The position numbers and the translations under genes were made by a program. This document shows, one piece after another, positions 26,817 to 42,972 of a stretch of DNA of 64,000 nt; position 1 is the first letter of the stretch, and every line of letters starts with the position of its first letter. The notes below the pieces were generated by a model. The model saw nothing but the letters and a program-made list of their open reading frames with translations, was not told where the DNA came from and did no database searches. The DNA is taken from NCBI RefSeq assembly GCF_001677475.2, contig NZ_CP015229.1; one strand, 5' to 3'. The DNA comes from Escherichia coli (GTDB lineage Bacteria; Pseudomonadota; Gammaproteobacteria; Enterobacterales; Enterobacteriaceae).

Positions 26817-27983
26817 ATGAACTTACATGAATATCAGGCAAAACAACTTTTTGCCCGCTATGGCTTACCAGCACCGGTGGGTTATGCCTGTACTACTCCG
26901 CGCGAAGCAGAAGAAGCCGCTTCAAAAATCGGTGCCGGTCCGTGGGTAGTGAAATGTCAGGTTCACGCTGGTGGCCGCGGTAAAGCGGGCGGTGTGAAAG
27001 TTGTAAACAGCAAAGAAGACATCCGTGCTTTTGCAGAAAACTGGCTGGGCAAGCGTCTGGTAACGTATCAAACAGATGCCAATGGCCAACCGGTTAACCA
27101 GATTCTGGTTGAAGCAGCGACCGATATCGCTAAAGAGCTGTATCTCGGTGCCGTTGTTGACCGTAGTTCCCGTCGCGTGGTCTTTATGGCCTCCACCGAA
27201 GGCGGCGTGGAAATCGAAAAAGTGGCGGAAGAAACTCCGCACCTGATCCACAAAGTTGCGCTTGATCCGCTGACTGGCCCGATGCCGTATCAGGGACGCG
27301 AGCTGGCGTTCAAACTGGGTCTGGAAGGTAAACTGGTTCAGCAGTTCACCAAAATCTTCATGGGCCTGGCGACAATTTTCCTGGAGCGCGACCTGGCGCT
27401 GATCGAAATCAACCCGCTGGTCATTACCAAACAGGGCGATCTGATTTGCCTCGACGGCAAACTGGGCGCTGATGGCAACGCACTGTTCCGCCAGCCTGAT
27501 CTGCGCGAAATGCGTGACCAGTCGCAGGAAGATCCACGTGAAGCACAGGCTGCACAGTGGGAACTGAACTACGTTGCGCTGGACGGTAACATCGGTTGTA
27601 TGGTTAACGGCGCAGGTCTGGCGATGGGTACGATGGACATCGTTAAACTGCACGGCGGCGAACCAGCTAACTTCCTTGACGTTGGCGGCGGCGCAACCAA
27701 AGAACGTGTAACCGAAGCGTTCAAAATCATCCTCTCTGACGACAAAGTGAAAGCCGTTCTGGTTAACATCTTCGGCGGTATCGTTCGTTGCGACCTGATC
27801 GCTGACGGTATCATCGGCGCGGTAGCGGAAGTGGGTGTTAACGTACCGGTCGTGGTACGTCTGGAAGGTAACAACGCCGAACTCGGCGCGAAGAAACTGG
27901 CTGACAGCGGCCTGAATATTATTGCAGCAAAAGGTCTGACGGATGCAGCTCAGCAGGTTGTTGCCGCAGTGGAGGGGAAATAA
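26817..27983 (+). CDS. sucC: succinyl-CoA synthetase beta subunit
   Basis: 388-aa ORF, ATP-grasp. Confidence 0.97.
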
Positions 27984-28852
27984 TGTCCATTTTAATTGAT
28001 AAAAACACCAAGGTTATCTGCCAGGGCTTTACCGGTAGCCAGGGGACTTTCCACTCAGAACAGGCCATTGCATACGGCACTAAAATGGTTGGCGGCGTAA
28101 CTCCAGGTAAAGGCGGCACCACCCACCTCGGCCTACCGGTGTTCAACACCGTGCGTGAAGCTGTTGCTGCTACTGGCGCTACCGCTTCTGTTATCTACGT
28201 ACCAGCACCGTTCTGCAAAGACTCCATTCTGGAAGCTATTGATGCAGGCATCAAACTGATTATCACCATCACTGAAGGCATCCCGACGCTGGATATGCTG
28301 ACCGTGAAGGTGAAACTGGATGAAGCGGGCGTTCGCATGATCGGCCCGAACTGCCCAGGCGTTATCACTCCGGGTGAATGCAAAATCGGTATCCAGCCTG
28401 GTCACATTCACAAACCGGGTAAAGTGGGTATCGTTTCCCGTTCCGGTACACTGACCTATGAAGCGGTGAAACAGACCACGGATTACGGTTTCGGTCAGTC
28501 GACCTGTGTTGGTATCGGCGGCGACCCGATCCCTGGCTCTAACTTTATCGACATTCTCGAAATGTTCGAAAAAGATCCGCAGACCGAAGCGATCGTGATG
28601 ATCGGTGAGATCGGCGGTAGCGCTGAAGAAGAAGCGGCTGCGTACATCAAAGAGCACGTTACCAAGCCAGTTGTAGGTTACATCGCTGGTGTGACTGCGC
28701 CGAAAGGCAAACGTATGGGCCACGCGGGTGCGATCATTGCCGGTGGGAAAGGGACTGCGGATGAGAAATTCGCTGCTCTGGAAGCCGCAGGCGTGAAAAC
28801 TGTTCGCAGCCTGGCGGATATCGGTGAAGCACTGAAAACTGTTCTGAAATAA
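27983..28852 (+). CDS. sucD: succinyl-CoA synthetase alpha subunit
   Basis: 289-aa ORF, 1-nt overlap with sucC. Confidence 0.97.
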
Positions 28853-28951
28853 ATATCTGTAATAAGAAATAGCCCTCGCCGCTTCCCTCTACAGGAATGG
28901 CGAAGGGCTGTCGGTTTCGACATGGTTGGCCATCGTATGATGGCCTTTTTT
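28853..28951 (+). ncRNA. sdhX: sucD 3'UTR-derived sRNA region (SdhX/RybD-like) ending in an intrinsic terminator
   Basis: Two hairpins (agccctcgcc...ggcgaagggct at 28871-28909; ggccatc...gatggcc plus T6 at 28928-28951) directly after sucD stop; position matches the known SdhX locus; sequence identity not verified. Confidence 0.5.
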
Positions 28952-30347
28952 ATGCCTTAAACGTTAACCACGGTCGAAATCTGACCGCTGGCTGAATTAA
29001 TCCGGCTTCTTGTTGAGCTTCGATAACCGGACCAATATCTTTATAAGCCGCTGGCGCTTCTTCAAGACGTCGTTCTTCGCGCAATGTGACGCATTGCCAC
29101 GGCAGCGTTGACTCTTCAGTCACGCGTGAGCGCATGGCCTGCCGACGCTGGCTGCGTCCTGCTCCGTGACTGCATGACCACAGCCACTCCGGGTTGCCGC
29201 AACCTACCGCAAGCCACGAATAATCGCCCATTGAACCAGGGATTAATGCCAGATCACCCACTCGTGCCGGTGTTGCGCCTTTGCGATGAATATTCATTTC
29301 ATGCTCGCGAAGGATGATGTTATGTGGCACATCCACCACCAGATGCGAATTGTCCTGATGAAAGAGATCGGCAAAACATACGCGCACCATTTCGGCAATT
29401 GTGACGCGATTTAACCATGCGTAACGCGCCGCCATCCCCATCGCTTGTAGATATTCCTCCGCCAGTCCACCGGTTAGACCATATAACTCGCTTTGTGGAT
29501 GTTTATGCCCGGCAGGCCAGGCGGCACGGGCGCGATCCATCCAGCGTCTTCCGACGTAAAAGCCAACATCTCGCGATCCACTGTGGATCATCACCACAAT
29601 ATCGCCTGTTTTCAGCCCTTGTTGCCAGGCTACATGGCGATCAACCACGCTATCAACGACCTGAAGTTCAATAAAATGATTACCTGAACCCGGCGTACCC
29701 AGACAAGGATCGCGGAGTAATGCGCGGTCCGTTGCCAGCAGGGCGGGTGGGGCATAACGCGAATGACTGTTATGCTCGTTAAGCCCAATGCAGCGGTCAA
29801 TCTCTTGTACCATTCGGGGGATATTCGTGCGTGTCCAGAGACCTGCTGATGGCAAGGTCGACACGCAATCTGCCGGTCCGTCATCAAAAAGCGCGGTGAA
29901 CGCCTGTGCGGATAACGGAACATCGCGCTCATTTTGCAGTAGCACTTGCGTTAACCGCTGAGCGATGACGTCTTTATGCGCTTCGGCTTGCTCAAGTGTT
30001 AATCCGGTCGTCAGCAGCCGCATGCCACAAGAAATATCGGTGCCGATGGCGGCAGGAATGACTAAATCCGGCGTTGAGGCCACCACCGCGCCAACGGGGA
30101 CGCCATTGCCGGGATGAAAATCTGGCGTCGCGCACGTCTGGCGCACATAACCTGGGTGGTCTGGTAGCTTCACTTCTGCAAAATCAAGCAGTTGTGTTAC
30201 TGCTTTTTCTTCCAGCGGCAGTTCGTCCGGCAGCAGTACGCGGGCACTGGCACCTGATGGACGAGATAATGAAACAATATTGTTGGCGCGGGAAAGTTGG
30301 ATCCCTTTGCGCAGAAAGGCTTTATCAAGCCTTGAAAGATGATGCAT
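28950..30347 (-). CDS. RtcB-family RNA ligase paralog (3'-phosphate/5'-OH ligase family)
   Basis: 465-aa ORF with RtcB motifs aligned to E. coli RtcB from memory: PAAIGTDISCGM, GSGNHFIE, IHSGSRDVG, IPGSMG, SCSHGAGR, AYKDI. Confidence 0.85.
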   Translation of the reverse strand: MHHLSRLDKAFLRKGIQLSRANNIVSLSRPSGASARVLLPDELPLEEKAVTQLLDFAEVKLPDHPGYVRQTCATPDFHPGNGVPVGAVVASTPDLVIPAAIGTDISCGMRLLTTGLTLEQAEAHKDVIAQRLTQVLLQNERDVPLSAQAFTALFDDGPADCVSTLPSAGLWTRTNIPRMVQEIDRCIGLNEHNSHSRYAPPALLATDRALLRDPCLGTPGSGNHFIELQVVDSVVDRHVAWQQGLKTGDIVVMIHSGSRDVGFYVGRRWMDRARAAWPAGHKHPQSELYGLTGGLAEEYLQAMGMAARYAWLNRVTIAEMVRVCFADLFHQDNSHLVVDVPHNIILREHEMNIHRKGATPARVGDLALIPGSMGDYSWLAVGCGNPEWLWSCSHGAGRSQRRQAMRSRVTEESTLPWQCVTLREERRLEEAPAAYKDIGPVIEAQQEAGLIQPAVRFRPWLTFKA

Positions 30348-30938
30348 AACGCTGTCCTGAAATATAGACGTTAAACAACCCCCTGTATTGCGAGGGTAAT
30401 TTTGTCTTTCCGGTCAGCAGCCAGCAAAAGGGAAAGAAAACGCGCGTAGTGTATGTGGCGATAGCAAGTTTTACAAGTGGTAAATCTGGCTTATTGTTAA
30501 AGAGAAATTATCTTTAGCGAAGCCTTTTAAGGCCATGACTCATTCAATTTAACCGGACACAGAGATTATATAACATAGGGTATCTAAATTTATCATTGTA
30601 TACTTGTCATACTTCAAGTTGCATGTACTGCATCGATGTTCGCTCAGCCTGGCCACTTACTTATGTAAGCTTCTGGGAATTCATTATTTGTTGCCTTCCT
30701 GCAACTCGAGTTATTTAGAGTATATTTACACATATGAATAATATACTTACAATAATGTTTTTAAAGTATTGCATGCGGATAACTGAGGTGAAATTCCTGT
30801 TTTAGGATTATTGTCACTTTATTTTCCTGGTTGGACATATAGCTGACTGGTTTGTTTATTTGAATTATGATATTCATTAGTGCTACTGTTTTTTTATAAA
30901 ATAATTTTTTGAATTGTTATTTTTTCACGGAAGGCATT

Positions 30939-31844
30939 ATGCGAGGGAAAATACCTAAAACGGAACTGCTGGTGACTTTTGAGGTCGTCGCACGTCATGA
31001 AAGTTATACCAGAGCGGCAGAGGAGTTAGCGTTAACCCAAAGTGCAGTATTCAGACAAGTGAGTGCGCTGGAGGAATTTTTACATACTCCGTTATTTTCA
31101 CACTCTAAAAAACGTATTTTTCTTAATGATGCAGGGAAGTATTACCTGGGGATAGTAAAAGAAACATTAAATAAGCTGGAACGCGATACCAATACCATTA
31201 TGACCTGGCAACCTACAGTTAAGGTTATTGAACTTGCCGTGAATCCTACGTTTAGTACCCACTGGTTAATCCCAAATTTACATGAATTCACAAAGTTACA
31301 TCCCGATATTATTGTTAATATTCACTCTTTAGCTAATAACGGCGATTTTCTTAATCGGGAGTACGATGCTGTCATTATGCGCGAAAATTTTTGCGCGCCC
31401 TGGGCGGAAGTAGAATATCTCTTTGAAGAAGAGATTTTGCCGGTATGCAGCGGCAGTTTGCTTGCAATGTCCGATCAAAAACTGTCAGTGGCAGAACTGC
31501 TTACAGAGTTACCACTTCTGCATCAAAGTACCCGTATTACTGGCTGGGAAGAGTGGTTTGCTTTATCTGGCGTTAGCAGTCCGCTGGTCAATAACGGACC
31601 ACGTTTCGATTTGCTTTCAATGCTGATTGCCGCCGTGCGCTCTAATCTCGGCGTGGCGCTGTTACCACGGTTCGCTATTCAACATGATTTGGATAGTGGC
31701 GATATGGTGATTCCCTGTGATGTGCCTATTCGTACCGGTAATCGTTTTATTATGACGTGGCAGGAAGAGAAGTCTGACTCGCCGCACTTGCAGCAATTTC
31801 GTGAATGGTTGCTGGCGAAATCGGTCGTACCGCAGGAGATGTAA
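30939..31844 (+). CDS. LysR-family transcriptional regulator
   Basis: N-terminal HTH (LVTFEVVARHESYTRAAEELALTQSAVFRQVSALE), ~300 aa, GGAAGG Shine-Dalgarno before ATG at 30939; divergent from the RtcB paralog. Confidence 0.85.
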   Translation: MRGKIPKTELLVTFEVVARHESYTRAAEELALTQSAVFRQVSALEEFLHTPLFSHSKKRIFLNDAGKYYLGIVKETLNKLERDTNTIMTWQPTVKVIELAVNPTFSTHWLIPNLHEFTKLHPDIIVNIHSLANNGDFLNREYDAVIMRENFCAPWAEVEYLFEEEILPVCSGSLLAMSDQKLSVAELLTELPLLHQSTRITGWEEWFALSGVSSPLVNNGPRFDLLSMLIAAVRSNLGVALLPRFAIQHDLDSGDMVIPCDVPIRTGNRFIMTWQEEKSDSPHLQQFREWLLAKSVVPQEM

Positions 31845-31877
31845 AACCTGCGCCTGGCGGGATGCCAGGCGCAGTTA

Positions 31878-32480
31878 TTACCAGTCGATACCCGGCTGGG
31901 CCTGAATGCCGCTATCAAAAGCATGTTTGACGGGGCGGATTTCGCTGACCGTATCCGCCATTTTTAATATCTGACTGTGGCAACCGCGTCCGGTGACAAT
32001 GACACTTTGTTGTGCCGGGCGGTTTTGCAGAGAAGCGATCACTTCTTCGGTATCCAGATAATGGTAAGCCAGCATATAGGTGAGCTCATCAAGCACCACT
32101 AAGTCGTAACGCTTGTCAGCCAGCATCCGTTTGCTTTCCGACCAGACCTCTTTCGCCGCGTCGATATCCGCTTGTCGGTTCTGTGTTTCCCAGGTAAAAC
32201 CGGTTCCCATAATATGAAACTCAACCCCCAGCGGCTGGAGAAGGTTGTATTCGCCGTTGTCCCATTGCCCCTTGATGTACTGCGCAACCCCCACCGTTTT
32301 GCCATGACCCACCGCGCGCGTCACAGTACCAAACGCGGCAGTGGATTTCCCTTTGCCGTTGCCGGTGAAAACAATCAAGATCCCTTTTTTCTCTATCGCC
32401 GCCGCGACGCGCGTATCGACCTGTTCCTTCAATTTCTGCTGGCGCTGCACATGCCGTTCTGTTGAAATTCGCGCTTCCAT
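31878..32480 (-). CDS. ATP:cob(I)alamin adenosyltransferase, BtuR/CobA-type paralog
   Basis: 200-aa ORF closely resembling E. coli BtuR (VFTGNGKGKSTAAFG P-loop, VVLDELTYM, RPVKHAFD); last gene of the island operon. Confidence 0.85.
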   Translation of the reverse strand: MEARISTERHVQRQQKLKEQVDTRVAAAIEKKGILIVFTGNGKGKSTAAFGTVTRAVGHGKTVGVAQYIKGQWDNGEYNLLQPLGVEFHIMGTGFTWETQNRQADIDAAKEVWSESKRMLADKRYDLVVLDELTYMLAYHYLDTEEVIASLQNRPAQQSVIVTGRGCHSQILKMADTVSEIRPVKHAFDSGIQAQPGIDW

Positions 32481-32489
32481 TCATTTTCC

Positions 32490-34142
32490 TTAATGTCCCG
32501 CAGGGCAACTGGCGCAGCGGTGTTGCTGCTCAAACTGACTAAAGAAATTATTGCCTTTATCATCTACCAGGATGAATGCGGGCAGATTTTCCACTTCCAT
32601 CATCCACACCGCTTCCATACCCAGCTCCGGGTATTCAAGGCAACGCAGACTTTTGACATATTCTTGCGCCAGTAACGCAGCTGCACCGCCAATACTTCCC
32701 AGATTGAAGCCGCCATGTTTGTGACAGGCATCGGTGACCTGCTGGCTGCGGTTACCTTTCGATAACATCACCAGACTGCCGCCAGCCGCCTGGAAGGTAT
32801 CGACATAACCGTCCATTCGACCGCCCGTGGTTGGACCCAGTGAACCGCAGGCCATGTTCTCCGGTGTTTTCGCCGGGCCAGCGTAATAGACAATATGATG
32901 CTTCAGGTAATCCGGCATCGGTTCGGCGCTATCCAGCCGCGCTTTTATTTTGGCGTGGGCGATATCGCGTGCCACTACGATGGGACCACTTAACGACACG
33001 CGGGTGCCTACCGGTAATCTGGCGAGATCCTGCATCACGTCACGCAACGGACGGTTTAGATCCAGATGTACATGTTGCGCGTGATTTTCTTCCCGCAGTG
33101 AGGCTGGAATATATTGCCCCGGATTGTGTTCGAGTTTTTCCAGCCAGATACCGTGCTTGTTAATTTTTGCTTTGATATTGCGATCGGCAGAACAGGAGAG
33201 CGCCATAGCTATCGGACAAGAGCCACCGTGACGCGGCAGACGAATGACGCGAATATCATGAGCGAAATATTTACCCCCAAATTGCGCACCAATACCAAAT
33301 TGCTGACTGGCCTCGAGCAACACTTTTTCCAGCTCAATATCACGGAATGCTTGTCCCTGCTCGTTTCCGCTGGTGGGCAAATTGTCGTAATATTTCGTTG
33401 AGGCCAGCTTGGCAACTTTTAAGGTTTGATCGGCTGAAAGCCCTCCGACGACAAAGGCGATGTGGTAAGGCGGGCAGGCAGCGGTGCCCAGCGATTTCAT
33501 TTTTTCGATTAAAAATGCGGTCAGTTTTTCTGGTTGCAATAAGGATTTGGTTTCCTGATAAAGTGCGGCTTTATTGGCGGAGCCGCCCCCTTTATTAACA
33601 CAGAGAAAATGGTACTCATTACCAGCGACAGCGTTGATATCAATCTGCGCCGGGAGATTGGTTTGCGTATTGACTTCGGTATACATATCCAGCGGCGCAT
33701 TTTGTGAAAAGCGCAGATTATTTTCCTGGAAAGTGGTGTAAATGCCTTTGCTTAAGGCTTCAGCGTCGTTACCTCCGGTCCATATCTGTTGCCCTTTACT
33801 GGCAACAATAGTTGCGGTGCCGGTATCCTGACAGTTGGGTAATACCCCTTTTGCTGAGACTTCAGCATTACGTAATAACTGCAACGCAACGTATTTATCA
33901 TTACTACTGGCCTGCGGATCGTTAAGAATGCTGGCGACCTGTTGCAAATGAGCGGAACGTAAGAAAAAAGAAGCTTCATAAAATGCCTGCCGGGCAAGCA
34001 GCGTTAATGCTTCAGGTGCGATTTTTATCACTTCTTCGCCGTCTAATTCCGTTACTGTAATATGCTGATCGCTAATTAATGTATATTCTGTACCGTCTTT
34101 ATTTTGTAGAAATGGTTCTTGCCAGATAAATGGTTTGGACAT
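32490..34142 (-). CDS. fumD: class I fumarate hydratase homolog, probable mesaconase/fumarase (FumD-like)
   Basis: 550-aa ORF highly similar to FumA/FumB along its length ([39 protein letters not shown]); clustered with glutamate mutase and methylaspartase. Confidence 0.85.
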
Positions 34143-34249
34143 ATTTCACTTTTCACCTTAAACGTTAGTGTTACTTAATTGCCGTCTAACTTCATGATCC
34201 GGCTTATAAAAATGCATAGTCATTGGCTTCTGATTGCTTAAGATCCCCC

Positions 34250-35530
34250 TCAGGGCAGAGCAACGTTCGATTCATTGGGTTTTAATGCTTTACCCCGACA
34301 GCCCTCGCCGAAATGTTCGCCTTCCCACCGACTCACCATCGCAGCGCCCATTGCGTTGCTCATGACGTTTGTCGCGGAACGCCCCATATCAAGGAACGGA
34401 TCAACGCCCATCAGCAAGATCAGCCCCGCTTCCGGAATATTGAACTGGTTGAGCGTGGCGGCGATAACCACCATTGAAGCGCGTGGTACGCCAGCCATTC
34501 CTTTCGAGGTCAACATCAGGATCAACAGCATGGTGATTTGCTCACCGATGGATAAATGGATATTGCAGGCCTGGGCGATGAAAACTGTGGCGAAGGAGCA
34601 GTAGGCCATTGATCCAACGAGATTAAATGAGTAGCCAATGGGTAAGACAAAGCTGGCAATTTTGGGGGAAACGCCAAATTGCTCCAGTTTTTCAAGCGTT
34701 CCTGGAAAAGCCGCTTCAGAACTGGATGTGGTAAATGCCAGCAGGGCGGGTTCCGAAAGGGCGCGGGTCAGGCGTCTGATGCAGGGGCCGACATAAACGA
34801 TGGCCAGACCGATAAGCAGCACCCAAAGTAACAACATGGTGAAATAAAATTCACCCATAAAGATCCCGGCGCTCACCATAACTGCCAGTCCTCGTTCAGC
34901 AATCAATGCTGAAATAGCGGCGAATACGGTCAGGGGAGCGAAGAGCATGACGTAGCCAGTGAGCTTTAACATGGCATGTGCCAGCGAATCTAAGGCGTGA
35001 ACGATGGCGCTGCCTTTCTCGCCAATCGCCGTCAGGCTACAGCCGAGGAAAATTGAGAACACCACGATTTGCAAAATTTCATTGTGCGCCATGGCATCGA
35101 CAATGCTGGTGGGGAAAGCATGCGAAATAAATACTTTTAGCGTGAAGGGTTCTGACGCGACCACTCCAGTGGTTTCGGCACCGTGTGCAACAAAATTAAT
35201 TCCTGTACCTGGCATGAAGAAATTTACTGTTATTAAGCCTAAGGCAATTGACAGCAATGAGGCGCAAATAAATAAAAAGAGTGTTTTAGAAAAAATACGA
35301 CCAAGGGCTTTGGCATCGCCCATTTTAGCAATACCTACCACCAGGGTAGAGACCACTAACGGAGCGATAATCATTTTTATCAGTCGTAAGAAAATCGTCG
35401 TGAATATCGATATTTCTTGCGCATAGAGTTTTGCGGTTTCCGGTGAAGCAGTGTTATTGAGCACTACGCCGATAACCATTCCAAGTACCAGCGCCAAAAG
35501 AATCATCGTGGTTAAACTTATTTTCTTCAT
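34250..35530 (-). CDS. dicarboxylate/amino acid:cation symporter (DAACS family; GltP/DctA-like)
   Basis: Polytopic ORF with DAACS-type motifs; Met at 35530 preceded by GGAGG; substrate not inferable. Confidence 0.8.
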   Translation of the reverse strand: MKKISLTTMILLALVLGMVIGVVLNNTASPETAKLYAQEISIFTTIFLRLIKMIIAPLVVSTLVVGIAKMGDAKALGRIFSKTLFLFICASLLSIALGLITVNFFMPGTGINFVAHGAETTGVVASEPFTLKVFISHAFPTSIVDAMAHNEILQIVVFSIFLGCSLTAIGEKGSAIVHALDSLAHAMLKLTGYVMLFAPLTVFAAISALIAERGLAVMVSAGIFMGEFYFTMLLLWVLLIGLAIVYVGPCIRRLTRALSEPALLAFTTSSSEAAFPGTLEKLEQFGVSPKIASFVLPIGYSFNLVGSMAYCSFATVFIAQACNIHLSIGEQITMLLILMLTSKGMAGVPRASMVVIAATLNQFNIPEAGLILLMGVDPFLDMGRSATNVMSNAMGAAMVSRWEGEHFGEGCRGKALKPNESNVALP

Positions 35531-35575
35531 TTTTTCCTCCATCAGGTGCACGGCGATAAATCAGAATCAGGAGAA

Positions 35576-35607
35576 GTAGATGCCTGAATAGAGATTCAGG
35601 CATCTAC
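35576..35607 (-). other. intercistronic perfect hairpin (14-bp stem, 4-nt loop)
   Basis: gtagatgcctgaat-agag-attcaggcatctac between the small coupled gene and the transporter gene. Confidence 0.5.
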
Positions 35608-35690
35608 CTGCTATTACAACCTTACAAATAGCTGAAGTGTTGAACTGCAATAAGTGACGGGATGTCAGTTGGCTAAAAGTGTTCGGATTT

Positions 35691-36008
35691 TTACAAATCG
35701 AAACTCATATTTAATAAAGGTGCATGTTGCTGTGCACCATAGACATCATTGTCACCTACATTCCCGGAGATAATATCTCGTGGCATGACGATTTTTACTG
35801 CGTTAGAAGGATCAAACCAGACAATACGATGAATAAAGTCAGGTTCAACATGATATAAGCGCGCAATCAGTTCTGGGGTTAATTGCCCTGATGATTTAAC
35901 TCGCTCATAGTTTTCTTTGGTTTTAAATAAAATATCTAAAACCAGTTCGTAAGGTCCGGCATTTTTCGAACGAATGACTTGCGCCAGTGAGACAATTGAC
36001 TGTTTCAT
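35691..36008 (-). CDS. uncharacterized small protein, partner of the upstream 456-aa protein (possibly DUF4387-like; unverified)
   Basis: 105-aa ORF overlapping the upstream gene by 4 bp; no motif I can assign. Confidence 0.55.
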   Translation of the reverse strand: MKQSIVSLAQVIRSKNAGPYELVLDILFKTKENYERVKSSGQLTPELIARLYHVEPDFIHRIVWFDPSNAVKIVMPRDIISGNVGDNDVYGAQQHAPLLNMSFDL

Positions 36009-37375
36009 GCCTGAACTCCTTCTGGCGTCACCTGTTCAATATGGAAATCAAAACGCAGAGCGTCGTTGGCTTCAATCAGGTGATATATGGAAAATTCGTA
36101 TACTGGCCCGCCCTGGATATCAGAAGGGGAGAACGGGAACGCCAGGTTGCCTGCGGTAGCGATGCGGTTTTCATAGCCGTAGTGCAGCATAGTAGAGCGC
36201 ACCAGCGAGCAAACGCTGTTGGCAATTTCCTGGGTCGATGCAACTACATCTAGCACAATCCCCAGCTCATGCCCGGCAGTTTGCATCGGTTCATGGTCGC
36301 CCATCACCCCGTTTTTGCCGTACAGGTGGAAATTGATGCGAATGCTGTCATCGTCGAGCGACAGGTTACGCGAAACGCTGGTTTTGACTTCATCGATGAT
36401 TTTATCGATCCCGGCGATCATGATCGGGTCGCGCGTTCCTGCGATGGTCAGACAGCGGAAGCCCACTCGTCGCGCACCTTCCAGTTTCAGGGCATACGGC
36501 GTTCCTTCATGCTTAGAACCGCTGACGTACACTTCGCCGTCATTGACCGCTTTAAATGTGCAGCCTTTCAGGTTCAACACGCCGCCAGGTCCAGGCAGGA
36601 AGTAGGGATCGGATTTCTCATACAGTGTGTGTGCAGCCGCTGACGTTTCGGTAAATTTACGCTTCGGATTAAATGTCTTCAGCGTAAAGCCGTTGTCATC
36701 AATGATGCCCATCGCACAGTCAGAGCCTGAGCCGGGCGTTGCGGCGATTGCCGCGCATTCAAGGATTTTCCCACAATGCAGCGCCAGACCTTCATCAAAG
36801 CCTTGCATGATCGGTAGCGCAGCAAAGCAGGCCGGGTCGTAAGCGCGCCCGCCCAGCACCACTTGCGCGCCTTCTTTCAGCGCCTGCTGGAAGGGTTCGA
36901 TGCCCATTTGCGCGACGATATACGTACTTTCGTCAATCGCGTCGTGGGTTAACGGCGGGACAAAATCCAGCGCCGTGATTTTGCCGTTATCCAGCGCCTG
37001 GTGGACGATGGCTTTGTCAACGTCTGCCGGGATCAACGCCATCGAGAACGAGAGGTGCTCTTCCCGGGCAATCTCATGAATTATTTCTCGGCACCACTCC
37101 AGGTGTGGTGCGGCACCAGAACCGCCAGCCGTTCCGATCACCACCGGTATATTATTTTGCACGCCTGCGGTGATCATATAGCGCAGATCGCGCTTGACCC
37201 CTGCGCGATCGGTAAACGGTTTGCCTGCCCCGAGGTAGTGGGGGCCTGGATCGGAAGAGCCTGCATCAACGGCGATCAGATCGGGCGATTCTGCCATCGC
37301 TTTGCGGAAGCTCTCTTCCGGGAATCCATACCCGAGGATTGCCGTTGGCGATAAGACTTTAAAAGAACGAGCCAT
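36005..37375 (-). CDS. uncharacterized protein, large member of a coupled pair (possibly DUF1446/AtuA-like or an AcnX-type hydratase; unverified)
   Basis: 456-aa ORF starting 3 bp after methylaspartase; several conserved-looking Cys/Gly-rich stretches (GTAGGSGAAPH, HCGKILECAAIAATPGSGSDC); family assignment needs an HMM search. Confidence 0.55.
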   Translation of the reverse strand: MARSFKVLSPTAILGYGFPEESFRKAMAESPDLIAVDAGSSDPGPHYLGAGKPFTDRAGVKRDLRYMITAGVQNNIPVVIGTAGGSGAAPHLEWCREIIHEIAREEHLSFSMALIPADVDKAIVHQALDNGKITALDFVPPLTHDAIDESTYIVAQMGIEPFQQALKEGAQVVLGGRAYDPACFAALPIMQGFDEGLALHCGKILECAAIAATPGSGSDCAMGIIDDNGFTLKTFNPKRKFTETSAAAHTLYEKSDPYFLPGPGGVLNLKGCTFKAVNDGEVYVSGSKHEGTPYALKLEGARRVGFRCLTIAGTRDPIMIAGIDKIIDEVKTSVSRNLSLDDDSIRINFHLYGKNGVMGDHEPMQTAGHELGIVLDVVASTQEIANSVCSLVRSTMLHYGYENRIATAGNLAFPFSPSDIQGGPVYEFSIYHLIEANDALRFDFHIEQVTPEGVQA

Positions 37376-37378
37376 TTG

Positions 37379-38620
37379 TTAATCCTTAGCCTGCAACAGC
37401 GCGATAGTACGATTCATTTCGTTGAAGACAATATCGAGGCCTTCGTCAAAGCCCATCCCAGGTTTTACCAGCATACGCATAGGGCGAGCGGCAAGGGCGA
37501 CGTGGACACAGGTGCGTGCACTGACATCAGTTTCATTGCAGGTGCCGCCCTGGTACGCTTCCATGTTGTGGCTGTTGCAATAAAGAACTGCATCGACGAT
37601 GTTGTGAATACTGCCCAGATCCGGGGTTTTGATTTGCACCATGTGGCAACTGGCGGCATCAGTGAAATCAACAATATCCTGGTAGGTGTTACACCATTCA
37701 TCGGCCACAATTTTCACGCCGGAACCGAGGCGCATCAGCTCTTTGGTAATCGCGGTCAGCAGGCGAATTTGATCGGGCTTGTTACCGGCATCGACCGGCC
37801 CTTCAATGTAGAGCGGCAGGCCTTGCGCTTCTTTTTCCAGGCTGGCGATGTATTGCGCACAGCGAAGCGGATCCATATCGAAGATCAGACCGATAGTGCC
37901 GTATACATCGATGTGCAGGGTTGGGTGGTAGCGTGCGCTGGTGCGCTTGCTCAGAATGCGATCCGACAGCCAGCGGACATATTCGCGCAGTTTTTCACCT
38001 TTAAAGCCCAGCTTCTCTTCGACGTTATTAATCAGCGCATGGGGCAGCACGTCGATGCCTTTAAGGATCATCTTATCGACGGCGATATATCGATCGTCGC
38101 CGCTCTGACCAAATAATGGAATGGATTCCGCCACGCGTGGCAACTGCCATTCATCACAGACCACTTCAGTTTTCAGACGGCCGGTTGCCAGCGCGGCAGC
38201 ATCAAGCAGCGCCTGTGATAATCCGTAGCGCACGGCGGTATGCAGCAAGTTGCCGTCAATACGCAATTTGTCGAAGAAACGGGCATTCGGCAGGAAAGCA
38301 TCCACATCGCGGCCTACCAGTAATGGCTTAATATGGTCGTTGAGGAACGGAATAAAGTGCTCTGCGAGGAACAGTGGATCGCGACCACCTGCCCCGGAAT
38401 ACTGTACGGCAGCACAGTCACCTACAGCGACCGCGCCGTTTTCCAGAATCAACTGTACCGATACGCACTCCCCAGCCTGACGTACGGCGTTAAACCCTTG
38501 TGTTACTGGCTCCCCGGTATAAAAAAAGCCGTCGTGACCCGCTCCGTTTTTTATCGCCTGCTGGTCATCGAAATAGAATGAGGAATAGCCAGCGGTGAAC
38601 AGGGCCTGTTTTATTTTCAT
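37379..38620 (-). CDS. mal: 3-methylaspartate ammonia-lyase (beta-methylaspartase)
   Basis: 413-aa ORF, enolase-superfamily methylaspartase signature (FYFDDQ.AIK.GAGHDGF N-terminus). Confidence 0.9.
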   Translation of the reverse strand: MKIKQALFTAGYSSFYFDDQQAIKNGAGHDGFFYTGEPVTQGFNAVRQAGECVSVQLILENGAVAVGDCAAVQYSGAGGRDPLFLAEHFIPFLNDHIKPLLVGRDVDAFLPNARFFDKLRIDGNLLHTAVRYGLSQALLDAAALATGRLKTEVVCDEWQLPRVAESIPLFGQSGDDRYIAVDKMILKGIDVLPHALINNVEEKLGFKGEKLREYVRWLSDRILSKRTSARYHPTLHIDVYGTIGLIFDMDPLRCAQYIASLEKEAQGLPLYIEGPVDAGNKPDQIRLLTAITKELMRLGSGVKIVADEWCNTYQDIVDFTDAASCHMVQIKTPDLGSIHNIVDAVLYCNSHNMEAYQGGTCNETDVSARTCVHVALAARPMRMLVKPGMGFDEGLDIVFNEMNRTIALLQAKD

Positions 38621-40065
38621 TATGGTCTTCCTATTAATTTACTGTGGGATACAGCATTGATGTCATCTACAACCATCTGGAATGTCGGTTGGCGTCCTTC
38701 AAAGCGTGCGCGTTCCGCAACGTAATCGTGGTGGAGGTCGAGAATATCTTTTGGCAATGGAACGGCTCCGGCTTCCAGTACGCGTATCGCGCCGGTGTTG
38801 TCACGGACCGGAAGAATTTTGCCCGCGTTGCAGGCGGCTGGCGCAAATGGCACATCCAGTACGCCCGCTTCAAATGCCAGCACCGTTCCGCGCGCAATAT
38901 CATCATTACCCAGTTCGAACACTTTATTCAGTACTGCGCGAACCTCGCTCTTAATCAGTTCAATTTCCAGTTCAACCGCAGGGCACGGCGGAAATTTCTG
39001 CTCATTGACCATGTTGAGCATCTGGCGGGAGGCTTTTAGCCCCTGAATGTTGGCAGCGGCAGTCGGGATGCCCCAGGCTTCGTGCGGACTTTTGGTGATG
39101 ACTTTGGTGGCACCAGACATCCCCGCGACGGCTGCGCCCCAGGAGATAATAGCGAACGCTTTCGATTCGTCTTCCGGAAAGCCGCCCATCCACTGGTGAA
39201 ACACGGTACTTAATTCATAGTCGGTATAGCCATAGCTCTGAAAGTAGTCATGTGCAAGTTCACGCAGAGACTGGATCGCCGCAACATCCTGCGTCAGGCT
39301 GCCGACCTGTCCATAACCAACGGTGATAGATTTCACACCCTGTTCCAGTGCCAGCAATCCTTCGATTATCGCGATAGAGTGCGAGATAAACGGCGGGATC
39401 AGCGTACCCGTTAGTGGGCCAAACGGTTCGCGGTTGATGCGGATCCCGTGTTCTTCATACATCCCCATTAAACGGTCGCAGTACTGCCAGTCGCGGATCG
39501 ATTTTTCCAGCGTTACGCGTTTGGCATACGGAATGTTGTAGGAAATGCCGCCGCCTTCATAACTGGTAAAGCCGCTGGACATCGAGATTTCAGCCAGCAG
39601 ACGTGCATCTGGCGTGCCGTGGCGGATCTGTAGCGGTTTTTGCAGGGTTTCGGTGAGGCGACGGCAAGCAGCGACACCATGGTTAACTACCGGTAAACCG
39701 TTCAGTTTAGAGGTTCCGGCTTCGATGGATTTTTTAATCCCTACAGCCGCTTCTTCGTACCGATTCAGACGGGTATATGCATCGATGGTGCTTGGCAGCA
39801 GATCGCACTCTTCTTGTAGTGTTTTCAGTAGTTCGATGTGTTCGTCCATCAGCGCCACACCTGCGCGTGGTTGGCTAAGGGTTTTTCCTTCCTTGTCTGC
39901 TTTCAGCAGCGCAAGAGAGAAGCGTTTATGCTCAGGAATGGTTTGTTGGTATTTAACGCCATCTTCAAAGTTTTCAACATCCTTGCCGGTTTCCCAGGTT
40001 TTCAGTACCTGTTGCCGCTCGGTCATGAATTCGTCATGGGTTAATTTCTTATTTCGAAGTTCCAT
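38620..40065 (-). CDS. glmE: glutamate mutase epsilon (E) subunit
   Basis: 481-aa ORF matching methylaspartate mutase E chain; 1-nt overlaps with mal and near glmL. Confidence 0.88.
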   Translation of the reverse strand: MELRNKKLTHDEFMTERQQVLKTWETGKDVENFEDGVKYQQTIPEHKRFSLALLKADKEGKTLSQPRAGVALMDEHIELLKTLQEECDLLPSTIDAYTRLNRYEEAAVGIKKSIEAGTSKLNGLPVVNHGVAACRRLTETLQKPLQIRHGTPDARLLAEISMSSGFTSYEGGGISYNIPYAKRVTLEKSIRDWQYCDRLMGMYEEHGIRINREPFGPLTGTLIPPFISHSIAIIEGLLALEQGVKSITVGYGQVGSLTQDVAAIQSLRELAHDYFQSYGYTDYELSTVFHQWMGGFPEDESKAFAIISWGAAVAGMSGATKVITKSPHEAWGIPTAAANIQGLKASRQMLNMVNEQKFPPCPAVELEIELIKSEVRAVLNKVFELGNDDIARGTVLAFEAGVLDVPFAPAACNAGKILPVRDNTGAIRVLEAGAVPLPKDILDLHHDYVAERARFEGRQPTFQMVVDDINAVSHSKLIGRP

Positions 40066-40083
40066 TGATTGCAGCCTTAATTG

Positions 40084-41472
40084 TTATAGGGTTAAGCATT
40101 GAATACTGGTGCGCGCGGCGGCCAGCGGATCGACTCTGGCGACGTTTGCCAGCAGTGGTAATAGCCCCCGGGAATCGCGGTAATATTCAAATTCGGTCGG
40201 TAAGAGAATGCGTTTACCGTCGTCGTTTAACTCGCGGTATTTCAACCAGTGATGCATATCGAACTGACTGGCACGCGAGAGCCATCCGCCGGAACCCACG
40301 ACTTTACGCACGGTTGTCAGGTCACGTCCCATCTGTAAATCGACATTGCCGACGCAGGTGCAGACCTCTTTTTTGGTGCCCGCATGTCTTTCGGTGGCAT
40401 AACCCACACACAGTCCGGCCAGGACGGTATCGAAATATTTCTCTTCTGCATTTGCGGGTAAGTAGTCGGGATGAGCGACTAAATGACGGAGATAATGATA
40501 AAAAGCGTCCAGCTGTGCGGGTTGCTGAGCAAAATTCACATTGACTAACTCTTTCGCACTTTCACCAACCACCACTGCCGAGACGCGCATTCCCAGATCG
40601 CCTTCCACCGTCCGTTTTACGAAGGGTTCCGGTACGCCGTGTAAAACGGTGTCGGGCGAGAGCGTGTTGGCACAGGCGGAATAGACATCGGTGGTTGCGC
40701 CGCCCATGTCGATCAGCATGAACTCTTTCCAGCTGTGATCGACGTTACTGATTGCCTTAACCAGTTCAAAGACCGTCCATGGTGTCGGCCTTGGTTCTTC
40801 GCCTGTTTTATCAACAATGACATCCAGCCCTTTCCCTTTAACGATGCGTTTAAGGAATATGTCGCAAATAGCCTGGCGTGCGGCTAAAGGGTTCGGATGG
40901 TCAAGATCGGGCAGAACGTTGTCGACGATGGTCAGGTCTTTATGCCCGAGGAGCTCCTGCACCTCGTCCTGAATATCCCGGTTTCCGGCATAAATAATGG
41001 CGCAGTCGAGTTGGGATTCTGCCAGCACACGGGCGTTATTCAGTCCGTAACTTTCTTCTCCGCCGTCGGTGCCGCCGGTGAACAAGAGAATATCGGGCTG
41101 CGTTTCTTCCAGTGCCTGGATATCACGGCGGTTCAGCTTGTAGGAGTAATATTGCGCAATTTTAGCCCCCGCAGAGTGAGCGGTTACTTTCGCGGTTTCC
41201 AGGGTGATAGAAGGCACCAATCCCATTGCGGCAACCGCCAGCCCACCTTTGGCAGAGGAGGAATACTTTAATGCAACCTCACCACTGTTTAACAGGGGGA
41301 GGGCATCATCTACGTTTAACACCTGGTCCAGGCTGGAGAAAAACCCCTTCGCCAGATGATGGGTGGTGGTTGGGGTCAGAACGTGGTTAACCAACGTTAA
41401 CGCGTCCCCCTCCCGGGTGAAGAGGGCTGCTTTGGTCCACGTCGAACCAATATCGACAGAGACGATTTGCAT
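40084..41472 (-). CDS. glmL: glutamate mutase accessory protein (GlmL/MutL)
   Basis: 462-aa ORF between S and E subunit genes as in clostridial glmS-glmL-glmE; overlaps glmS stop. Confidence 0.8.
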   Translation of the reverse strand: MQIVSVDIGSTWTKAALFTREGDALTLVNHVLTPTTTHHLAKGFFSSLDQVLNVDDALPLLNSGEVALKYSSSAKGGLAVAAMGLVPSITLETAKVTAHSAGAKIAQYYSYKLNRRDIQALEETQPDILLFTGGTDGGEESYGLNNARVLAESQLDCAIIYAGNRDIQDEVQELLGHKDLTIVDNVLPDLDHPNPLAARQAICDIFLKRIVKGKGLDVIVDKTGEEPRPTPWTVFELVKAISNVDHSWKEFMLIDMGGATTDVYSACANTLSPDTVLHGVPEPFVKRTVEGDLGMRVSAVVVGESAKELVNVNFAQQPAQLDAFYHYLRHLVAHPDYLPANAEEKYFDTVLAGLCVGYATERHAGTKKEVCTCVGNVDLQMGRDLTTVRKVVGSGGWLSRASQFDMHHWLKYRELNDDGKRILLPTEFEYYRDSRGLLPLLANVARVDPLAAARTSIQCLTL

Positions 41473-41921
41473 CAGATTGCCTCTTCAAGAATGCGAGTAT
41501 CAACGTCATGACGTTGGTTGATATCGTGGGCCATCAGCTGACAAACATCTTCTAAGTCATGACTTGGGGAAAAGACGCGATCAAATCCCATCTCTTTGAA
41601 CTTGGTTTCCACGTCAGCGAAGTCATGTTTTCCGACCACCAGGTTACCGCCCACATAGAGCAGGATGTTACCCAGCCCACGCTCGATGCAGCGTTCGCGC
41701 ATGCCCAGACAATCGATATCGCCATGCCCATAGATAGAAGAGACGACAATCGCGTCAGCGCCAGTTTCAATAGCAGCATCAATATATTCGTCCTGGCTGA
41801 CCATTACGCCCAGATTAATGACTCTGAAGTCGTGGTTGCTAAAAACGCGGTCCAGAACTTTATTGCCTACTGCATGGCAGTCCGCGCCAATAACGCCAAT
41901 CACAAGTGTTGCTTTCTTCAT
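41472..41921 (-). CDS. glmS: glutamate mutase sigma (S) subunit, B12-binding
   Basis: Cobalamin-binding motif ([10 protein letters not shown]); start at 41921 ([19 protein letters not shown]) preferred over track start 41984. Confidence 0.88.
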
Positions 41922-41984
41922 GGGTAATCCTTTGTAAGACAGAGAGTAAAATAAGTTACACACGTCGTATTTATGGCCGCTCAT

Positions 41985-42468
41985 AACGGCACAGGTTTAA
42001 TATCACAGGAGTGTCTTTATCTGACCGTAATGTTGCAATTGATCTATTTTCAAAATGTCTTTCGGGAAATGATTGTTTAAAGTGTGTTTTCAAATTCTCA
42101 TTTTAATTCAGTGTGTTATGTCAACTAATGTCATGAATGTTAAATTTTTAAAATTAACTTGATTTGATGTATTGAGATAATTGTGATCAACTTCTAATTT
42201 GCATTTTTGTGACGTGGCTTTAGCCATGAGTAAATGCATTTCATAAAAGTTAAGTCGAATTTCACTGCAATTCATCTCTGCTTAATGTAAAAATAATGTT
42301 GAAAATAACAAATAATTAATGATTCATGCGAATTATGACCTTTGTTAGCTCTTTTGATTTTTCGTAAAAAAGAAAAGCACATGAAGGTGCTACCAGTACG
42401 AGAAACGTTAATCAAAAGTTTTATTACGTCTGGCAATAACGCAGGCCATTTTTCGCGACAGGAGGGAT
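41985..42468 (-). promoter_or_regulatory. AT-rich leader/promoter region of the glmS-led operon
   Basis: ~480-bp very AT-rich non-coding spacer upstream of glmS; individual sites not resolved. Confidence 0.5.
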
Positions 42469-42891
42469 TTAATCAGTATAATCCTCATACAATAGGTCAG
42501 GATTTACAGAACCGTTAACGGGGTTTTGGTGTTGAAATTTAGAAATGGTGGAGTCAATCAATGAAGACAGTATCGAAAAAATGACTGTGTCAGAACTAAT
42601 TTCAATTAATCCTTCTCGTTGTTGATCAAAAAAGATATTTATCTTGATTTCATTTGTACTACGGCAATCAATATGTAGTAATTTTTGATCGCTGAGATTT
42701 TCTGTTTCATAAATGTTTTTGGCGATAGTCGGATGTATTGATGCCAGACATCTGCTCAGATAAGCCATATCCTTTAAGGAACTCCCCGCTGAGTAGAGGA
42801 TGTCAGAGAATTTTTGTGTGTCAACTGTTGTCTCTGAAGCGTATGTTGCATTGACAGGAAGAGTATTGAAAGAGATCTGAGATGGTATCAT
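42469..42891 (-). CDS. hypothetical protein (no recognisable family)
   Basis: 140-aa ORF in low-GC DNA, co-oriented with and 81 bp downstream of the 314-aa ORF. Confidence 0.5.
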   Translation of the reverse strand: MIPSQISFNTLPVNATYASETTVDTQKFSDILYSAGSSLKDMAYLSRCLASIHPTIAKNIYETENLSDQKLLHIDCRSTNEIKINIFFDQQREGLIEISSDTVIFSILSSLIDSTISKFQHQNPVNGSVNPDLLYEDYTD

Positions 42892-42972
42892 TATTTAAAT
42901 CTTTCCGTGAGTAATAAAAATTAATCCCCAGGCATTGTTTAGCAATATTTGCCATAGGGGATATATAGAAAA

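Follow-up and report, generated by a model that had tools for sequence, protein, structure and literature searches.

We analyzed a 64,000-nucleotide stretch of Escherichia coli DNA (contig NZ_CP015229.1, assembly GCF_001677475.2; "the window" refers to this whole stretch) that carries a gene for an RtcB-family RNA ligase, here called rtcB, beside a gene for a LysR-type regulator. The window comes from an E. coli-type chromosome, with a sucA that reaches 99.1% identity to complete E. coli genomes. The sdhAB-sucABCD gene order ends at position 28852 with sucD (27983-28852), and the immediate neighbors of rtcB are sucD on one side and the LysR gene on the other (Table 1). A prediction made earlier from the sequence alone had described a 465-aa RtcB-family open reading frame (ORF) divergent from LysR across an AT-rich spacer of about 590 bp; we measure a spacer of 591 bp with a GC content of 0.347 (34.7%), compared to 0.503 for the window. 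The prediction had also reported that no rtcA, rtcR or release-factor-like ORF is adjacent, and we likewise find no rtcA, rtcR or prfH-like gene, either among the window ORFs or among the RefSeq-annotated genes in the 35 kb of E. coli ETEC1738 that are syntenic with this region. The length of the spacer is counted from an ATG start for LysR. In the program-made ORF call the longest LysR ORF begins at a TTG codon at 30909 and has 311 aa, and a second candidate start, the ATG at 30939 (301 aa), is preceded by a GGAAGG Shine-Dalgarno sequence. Given this sequence, the 906-bp length of the RefSeq version, and the finding that homology to the LysR side in O157:H7 and other genome configurations begins at 30921, past the TTG, the real start is most likely ATG 30939 and the gene most likely spans 30939-31844.

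The RtcB protein and its clade

The product of rtcB matches the Pfam RtcB model PF01139 over residues 63-464 (model positions 7-425/426, E = 6.3e-97). In the RtcB literature, roles are assigned to the residues that bind two Mn2+ ions, GTP/GMP, and the phosphate ends. We aligned the window protein and 15 relatives (16 clade members) with E. coli K-12 RtcB1, for a total of 17 sequences, and find the window/RtcB1 residue pairs D104/D75, C107/C78, N223/N167, H224/H168, H255/H185, R259/R189, H342/H281, H394/H337, R398/R341, and R402/R345; D76 and H78 are conserved as well. We take H394 (E. coli H337) to be the GMP-histidine that is guanylylated, and D104, C107, H224, H255, and H342 to be metal ligands. 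None of the metal-binding, GMP-histidine, or phosphate-binding residues varies among the 16 clade members and RtcB1. All of the metal/GTP-binding and His-GMP motifs that had been noticed in the unaligned sequence were found by this alignment, and the catalytic residues, whose loss on careful alignment had been named as the observation that would count against the enzyme, are all retained.

The predicted structure and the pattern of substitutions point the same way. An AlphaFold model built on the 16-sequence alignment has a mean predicted local distance difference test score (pLDDT) of 85.4 and a predicted template modeling score (pTM) of 0.89. The significant matches in a PDB search with this model are exclusively RtcB structures; the top 16 are all RtcB, with template modeling (TM) scores up to 0.83, and comparison to the PDB revealed no extra domain. 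At the DNA level, rtcB is 80% identical to its homolog on a metagenome contig (L097), and the differences at codon positions 1, 2, and 3 number 53, 27, and 202, a pattern that indicates strong purifying selection on the protein. Neither the RtcB nor the LysR protein matches a defense-system model in PADLOC (E <= 0.01).

To which RtcB group does this protein belong? The window RtcB is 29% identical to RtcB1, 33% identical to the PrfH-linked RtcB2 (the reference comes from an E. coli strain whose rtcB2-prfH operon is intact), and shares about 34% identity with the enzymes of Thermus and Pyrococcus. A phylogeny had been suggested as a check on the original prediction; in our neighbor-joining tree the window RtcB falls on its own branch, apart from RtcB1 and RtcB2. 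It also misses the cut-offs of the two PrfH-type NCBIfam models (167.5 vs 271.8 bits for TIGR03073, release_rtcB; 207 vs 407 bits for NF007153), and RtcB1 likewise scores under both. The nearest clade members are 462-470 aa in length and 55-67% identical, and near relatives are found in Burkholderia, Ralstonia, Variovorax, Janthinobacterium, Chitinimonas, Pseudomonas aeruginosa, Xanthomonadaceae, Gilliamella, Snodgrassella, Xenorhabdus, and Pectobacterium, with remoter branches in cyanobacteria (~40% identity) and myxobacteria (31-43%). RefSeq labels members of the clade "RtcB family protein", and our literature search found no paper that treats these ~465-aa RtcBs. Judged by identity, tree position, and model scores, the window RtcB is a member of a third, uncharacterized clade of ~465-aa RtcBs that is distinct from RtcB1 and RtcB2, which bears out the earlier view of a stand-alone paralog unlike the rtcBA/RtcR and PrfH types.

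Comparison to known systems helps to place this clade. E. coli RtcB1, encoded in rtcBA under the sigma-54 activator RtcR, has in common with the window protein the PF01139 domain and the same catalytic residues, and the ligation chemistry is presumably shared. However, the window protein is 57 residues longer, with helical and beta-hairpin inserts as in the archaeal and Thermus enzymes, and its gene adjoins sucD and LysR without rtcA, a divergent rtcR, or a GG-N10-GC sigma-54 promoter; the 591-bp spacer, read in the rtcB sense, has no sigma-54 TGGC-N-TGC match in a simple pattern test. The RtcB2 of the rtcB2-prfH ribosome-repair module, of the E. coli ATCC 25922 type (PMC9223846, PMC9304027), is also an accessory RtcB-family ligase of some E. 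coli strains and, at 33% identity, is slightly closer to the window protein than RtcB1. In contrast to the window gene, which encodes 465 aa and has no prfH, rtcB2 encodes 379 aa and is translationally coupled to prfH. The enzymes of Pyrococcus horikoshii and Thermus thermophilus (4DWQ/1UC2 and 2EPG) are the best matches among solved structures by sequence (E ~1e-44) and also by structure, led by the P. horikoshii RtcB-GMP/Mn2+ structure 4DWQ (TM 0.81 to the predicted model); they are of similar length and have inserts in common with the window protein. Even so, identity to them is only ~34%, no archease gene is seen near the window gene, and the window clade adds an N-terminal helix of its own. 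This clade-specific element occupies residues 1-20 (30288-30347), with a helix predicted at 6-13 and R6, L7, A10, and R13 invariant, and is missing in RtcB1. Multiple RtcB paralogs in a single bacterium have a precedent: the RtcB1-3 paralogs of Myxococcus xanthus reportedly differ in their RNA/DNA ligation and capping activities (Maughan and Shuman 2015, as cited in PMC9223846), and the more distant relatives of the clade mentioned above include myxobacterial sequences.

Table 1. Features at and around the rtcB locus, in window coordinates
Feature	Position	Strand	Basis or remark
sucD 3' untranslated region (UTR)	28853-28949	+	100% identical to E. coli ETEC1738
Terminator hairpin and T-run in sucD 3' UTR	28928-28945	+	Terminator scan
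Solo RtcB-family ligase gene (rtcB), 465 aa	28950-30347	-	Pfam, catalytic residues, tree, predicted fold, codon-position pattern
Conserved 108-bp upstream region, presumed promoter and 5' leader	30348-30455	-	Homology ends at 30455
AT-rich filler, GC 0.318, configuration-specific	30456-30920	not assigned	144/5,426 E. coli genomes
LysR-type (GcvA-like) regulator, 301 aa	30939-31844	+	NCBIfam GcvA-like LysR models
cobO/cobA	31878-32480	-	Methylaspartate (mesaconate) pathway island
Class I fumarase/mesaconase FumD	32490-34142	-	Methylaspartate island
GltP/DctA-like transporter	34250-35551	-	Methylaspartate island
DUF4387	35691-36008	-	Methylaspartate island
AtuA/DUF1446	36005-37375	-	Methylaspartate island
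Methylaspartate ammonia-lyase (mal)	37379-38620	-	Methylaspartate island
Glutamate mutase E	38620-40065	-	Methylaspartate island
GlmL	40084-41472	-	Methylaspartate island
GlmS	41472-41984	-	Methylaspartate island

Distribution of rtcB and the LysR gene

We next counted these genes in 5,426 complete E. coli genomes. The window rtcB is present at full length in 289 of them (~5%). By comparison, RtcB1 is found in 4,850 (89%), which is a population-wide total and not a per-carrier overlap with the window rtcB. The LysR gene occurs in 1,120 genomes, and the majority of its carriers, O157:H7 among them, are without rtcB. rtcB, the spacer, and LysR are found together in 138 genomes, and in 145 others rtcB is instead divergent from hutU, with no LysR gene. 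Given these four counts, rtcB and LysR assort independently in E. coli. Some genomes retain only traces of rtcB: about 401 have just a 44-bp scar of its 3' end, and in O157:H7 the gene is reduced to this scar and a 57-bp internal fragment (window 28853-28993; L003 8052-8250). That the gene is often deleted shows that it is dispensable in many E. coli lineages.

rtcB is an accessory chromosomal gene in a hotspot downstream of sucD. We find no plasmid carriage: the lone E. coli match in the plasmid collection PLSDB, NZ_CP134663.1, is a 4.9-Mb E. coli record that is filed as a plasmid and is evidently a chromosome. Depending on the strain, the cargo of the hotspot is mngR-mngAB (K-12), the histidine-utilization (hut) island, the methylaspartate island, or combinations of these with rtcB. 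The comparison of 28853-42970 to L002, L003, L097, and K-12 marks the whole sucD-cydA interval as a recombination hotspot with interchangeable cargo, and L097 has an additional TPR-protein gene between sucD and rtcB.

To look beyond E. coli, we used 82 loci that encode members of the RtcB clade, 80 from a scan of one genome per species plus the P. aeruginosa and Burkholderia loci. Genes were called at all 82, LysR-family proteins were flagged with an iterated hidden Markov model, and neighbors within 4 kb were clustered. No locus (0/82) has a LysR gene immediately beside the clade RtcB, where about 3 would be expected given that 2% of the flanking genes encode LysR proteins. Within 4 kb of RtcB at these loci, no conserved partner family is shared across genera; the recurring neighbors are generic (ABC transporters, sensor kinases, short-chain dehydrogenases/reductases, LysR), and each is found at no more than 9 of the 82 loci and mostly in a single genus. 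Additionally, there is no ortholog of the window LysR near the other clade members, the best LysR protein being 32% identical and 3.6 kb away. The contexts of RtcB vary among P. aeruginosa, Burkholderia, and enteric metagenome contigs, and closer relatives (83% and 67% identity) are also in unrelated contexts. The clade is therefore genuinely solo, with no fixed gene partner. At 6 loci (5 from Burkholderia, 1 from Chitinimonas) a non-orthologous LysR gene lies two genes from RtcB and is divergent from the intervening gene. In the Burkholderia loci (L007, L013, L019, L023, and L038), RtcB is 53-230 bp downstream of a same-strand NmrA-like gene that is itself divergent from LysR, and Burkholderia may have a lineage-specific LysR-controlled operon that includes RtcB.

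The upstream region of rtcB and the methylaspartate island

Comparison of the LysR and hutU configurations shows how much sequence accompanies rtcB. Homology between the two spans 28802-30455, that is, rtcB and exactly 108 bp upstream. The same boundary is seen in L097, which is 86% identical in the protein, has hutU opposite rtcB, and loses homology at the same base, 30455. The 108-bp region is 100% identical in ETEC1738, 99% in MS14385, a strain of the hut configuration, and 87% in L097. Because the identity to L097 is higher here than at the third codon positions of rtcB (57%), the region is constrained, and it travels with rtcB.

We presume that the 108-bp region holds rtcB's own promoter and leader. 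Reading by eye, we identified a candidate promoter with a -35 element TTGCTG, a 17-nt spacer, and a -10 element CAAAAT, as well as a candidate AGGA Shine-Dalgarno sequence 7 nt ahead of the rtcB ATG. Two short hairpins, CTTTCC...GGAAAG and ACCCTC...GGGGGT, are also present, and all of these elements are invariant in the three compared sequences. The fold of the leader RNA is marginal relative to shuffled sequences (z = -1.88), and the region may do more than serve as a promoter, perhaps by acting as a regulatory leader. A near match to a HutC-type operator in the leader, GTCTATAT, also read by eye, was dropped given that it is not conserved in L097.

The remaining spacer sequence behaves differently. 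The 465 bp at 30456-30920 are found in only ~144 E. coli genomes, at 93-95% identity, and show no similarity to the 449 bp found ahead of LysR in O157:H7. This remainder is locally the least conserved sequence (93.8%, compared to 97.8% for rtcB and 97.7% for LysR). A divergent LysR-target pair would be expected to have a conserved shared control region, and such a region is absent, since the 108 bp are kept without LysR too and the LysR-proximal 465 bp are replaced in O157:H7. The filler contains an imperfect palindrome at ~30599-30724 with 25-nt arms 76 nt apart, which, judged by the ERIC primer sequences, resembles an enterobacterial repetitive intergenic consensus (ERIC) element; Rfam gives no match for it. 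Its ends match an intergenic region of Yersinia enterocolitica, and one other E. coli locus matches at 87%.

If LysR is not tied to rtcB, what does it belong to? The methylaspartate island (31878-41984, minus strand) is convergent with the LysR gene, and the arrangement is syntenic in the RefSeq-annotated ETEC1738. The number of genomes with LysR (1,120) matches that of genomes with mal, a gene of the same island (1,122), in a comparison of totals and not of genome-by-genome identity. Genera with LysR orthologs (60-90% identity) include Salmonella, Citrobacter, Enterobacter, Klebsiella, and Yersinia. The Salmonella cluster runs sucD - LysR - cobA - fumD - gltP - DUF4387 - AtuA - mal - glmE, without rtcB. 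In Yersinia enterocolitica (L095/L096, 4205-10449) the cluster lies at another place in rearranged form, with LysR divergent from sumT...glmS-glmL-glmE-mal and directly followed by fumD-cobA, again without rtcB. The classical divergent regulator layout of Yersinia is lost in E. coli and Salmonella, in which LysR is convergent at the tail of the operon.

This gene cluster has been described before. The legend of Fig 5 in Kronen and Berg 2015 (PMC4682846) lists an "LTTR" (LysR-type transcriptional regulator) in the enterobacterial glutamate-fermentation gene cluster. The window LysR, which has 99% identity to the common E. coli protein, is the same regulator, positioned after cobA-fumD as in O157:H7 and Salmonella, and the sole difference in the window is the rtcB module on its other side. 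Based on the co-occurrence with mal, the Salmonella and Yersinia synteny without rtcB, and the listing in that legend, the simplest interpretation is that LysR works for the methylaspartate/glutamate-fermentation island, as its candidate regulator.

Alternative explanations for the locus

We propose that the locus holds an intact solo RtcB ligase gene, that LysR is unrelated to it, and that the two are neighbors through island mosaicism. We assign a probability of about 0.75 to this explanation, in which catalysis, the place of the promoter, and the lack of LysR control are predicted features. By analogy with characterized RtcBs, the ligase would use GTP and Mn2+. His394 would be guanylylated and the GMP would then pass to the 3'-phosphate end of an RNA (or DNA); 2',3'-cyclic ends would be hydrolyzed first, and attack by the 5'-OH would seal the break. 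The gene would be transcribed from its own 108-bp promoter/leader without a dedicated regulator and would offer general or toxin-specific RNA repair alongside RtcB1. The methylaspartate island would have been joined to the rtcB module at 30455/30456, making LysR its neighbor, and the adjacency of rtcB and LysR thus looks like an accident of island mosaicism. Several points weigh against this explanation. The candidate sigma-70 promoter is weak (3/6 and 4/6 consensus matches), and a consensus promoter scan found 7 sites, vs 5.4 +/- 2.4 in shuffles, with none within the 108 bp. Genomes with the scar alone outnumber the carriers of rtcB, and the contribution of the gene to E. coli fitness may be small. 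The co-occurrence counts are also compatible with LysR, in the 138 genomes where the two are adjacent, acting on rtcB in addition, and the agreement of LysR and mal is one of totals. Finally, we found no biochemical or expression data for any clade member in the searchable literature.

The original prediction had offered a different account of the adjacency, namely that LysR binds the shared spacer and controls the divergent rtcB, which would give an RNA repair function that responds to a small molecule. LysR-type regulators are typically divergent from their targets, and the orientation of the two genes fits this layout; the arrangement is also stable in 138 E. coli genomes, and the Burkholderia and Chitinimonas loci have a LysR gene, though a non-orthologous one, two genes upstream of the clade RtcB. 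Nevertheless, we consider such control very unlikely given that rtcB and LysR assort independently, that only the 108 bp upstream of rtcB are conserved across contexts while the other 465 bp are configuration-specific and fast-evolving, and that O157:H7 has unrelated DNA ahead of LysR. Furthermore, LysR orthologs follow the methylaspartate cluster in other genera, and none of the 82 loci has an adjacent LysR, the nearest comparable protein being both divergent in sequence and kilobases away. A search for conserved LysR-RtcB pairing in the flanks of other genomes had been suggested as a check, and the pairing is confined to 138 of the 289 E. coli carriers. The opposite outcome, that LysR regulates the convergent operon rather than rtcB, had been named as evidence against the proposal and is close to what we find, in that LysR stays with the methylaspartate cluster as its candidate regulator. 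What holds up of a differently regulated RNA repair function is therefore the separate stand-alone paralog, and not its pairing with or control by LysR. Even less probable, in our estimation, is a tie between rtcB and the hut island with the divergent rtcB-hutU pair as the original unit. This arrangement is found in 145 E. coli genomes and, at 80% DNA identity, in L097; yet there are no hut genes beside the clade RtcB in the other 82 loci or in the 83% and 67% identical relatives, and the 138 genomes with the LysR island retain rtcB without hut. To our knowledge there is no biochemical rationale for such a tie.

Two further alternatives concern what rtcB does. It might be a decaying passenger, intact yet silent or without functional relevance in E. 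coli and heading for loss. The ~401 genomes with just the scar, the scar and 57-bp fragment of O157:H7, a partial copy together with a cluster of N-terminally shortened 398-aa annotations, and the carriage of the gene by merely 5% of genomes all fit this picture, which we nonetheless regard as unlikely: the frame is full-length with every catalytic residue, the codon pattern is that of purifying selection, conservation of the upstream region exceeds that of synonymous sites, and alleles with 95-98% identity, from two different contexts, all have the same gene length. Conversely, the solo clade might represent a specialized third pathway for the repair of RNA or DNA ends, in which the 108-bp leader would act as a cis sensor of RNA damage or translation stress in place of RtcR or PrfH and the target would be cut by a ribotoxin from a competitor. 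If this were so, such a target would account for the patchy accessory spread of the clade in host-associated bacteria (E. coli, Xenorhabdus, Pectobacterium, Gilliamella, and Snodgrassella). We put this idea forward tentatively, as having a small chance of being correct.

E. coli strains can have up to three distinct RtcB ligases, of which two have been studied so far. The third is intact, evolves under purifying selection, and is common across Beta- and Gammaproteobacteria (P. aeruginosa and Burkholderia among them), and it has no partner gene to suggest its substrate. It is an uncharacterized member of a well-known enzyme family beside an already described metabolic island, and we view it as a reasonable, non-urgent target for those who study RNA repair and resistance to toxins. 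The idea that LysR acts as a metabolite-sensing switch for RNA repair is without comparative support and should not be taken further; LysR is better studied as a candidate regulator of the glutamate-fermentation island.

A last observation concerns the sucD side of the locus. An Rfam scan of 28700-31000 (E <= 1) gave zero matches, and neither the rtcB leader nor the sucD 3' UTR fits a known riboswitch or small RNA (sRNA) model. We take the sucD 3' UTR to be the SdhX sRNA region. Its terminator is separated from the opposite-strand stop codon of rtcB by 4 nt, and read-through from rtcB would be antisense to the putative SdhX sRNA.

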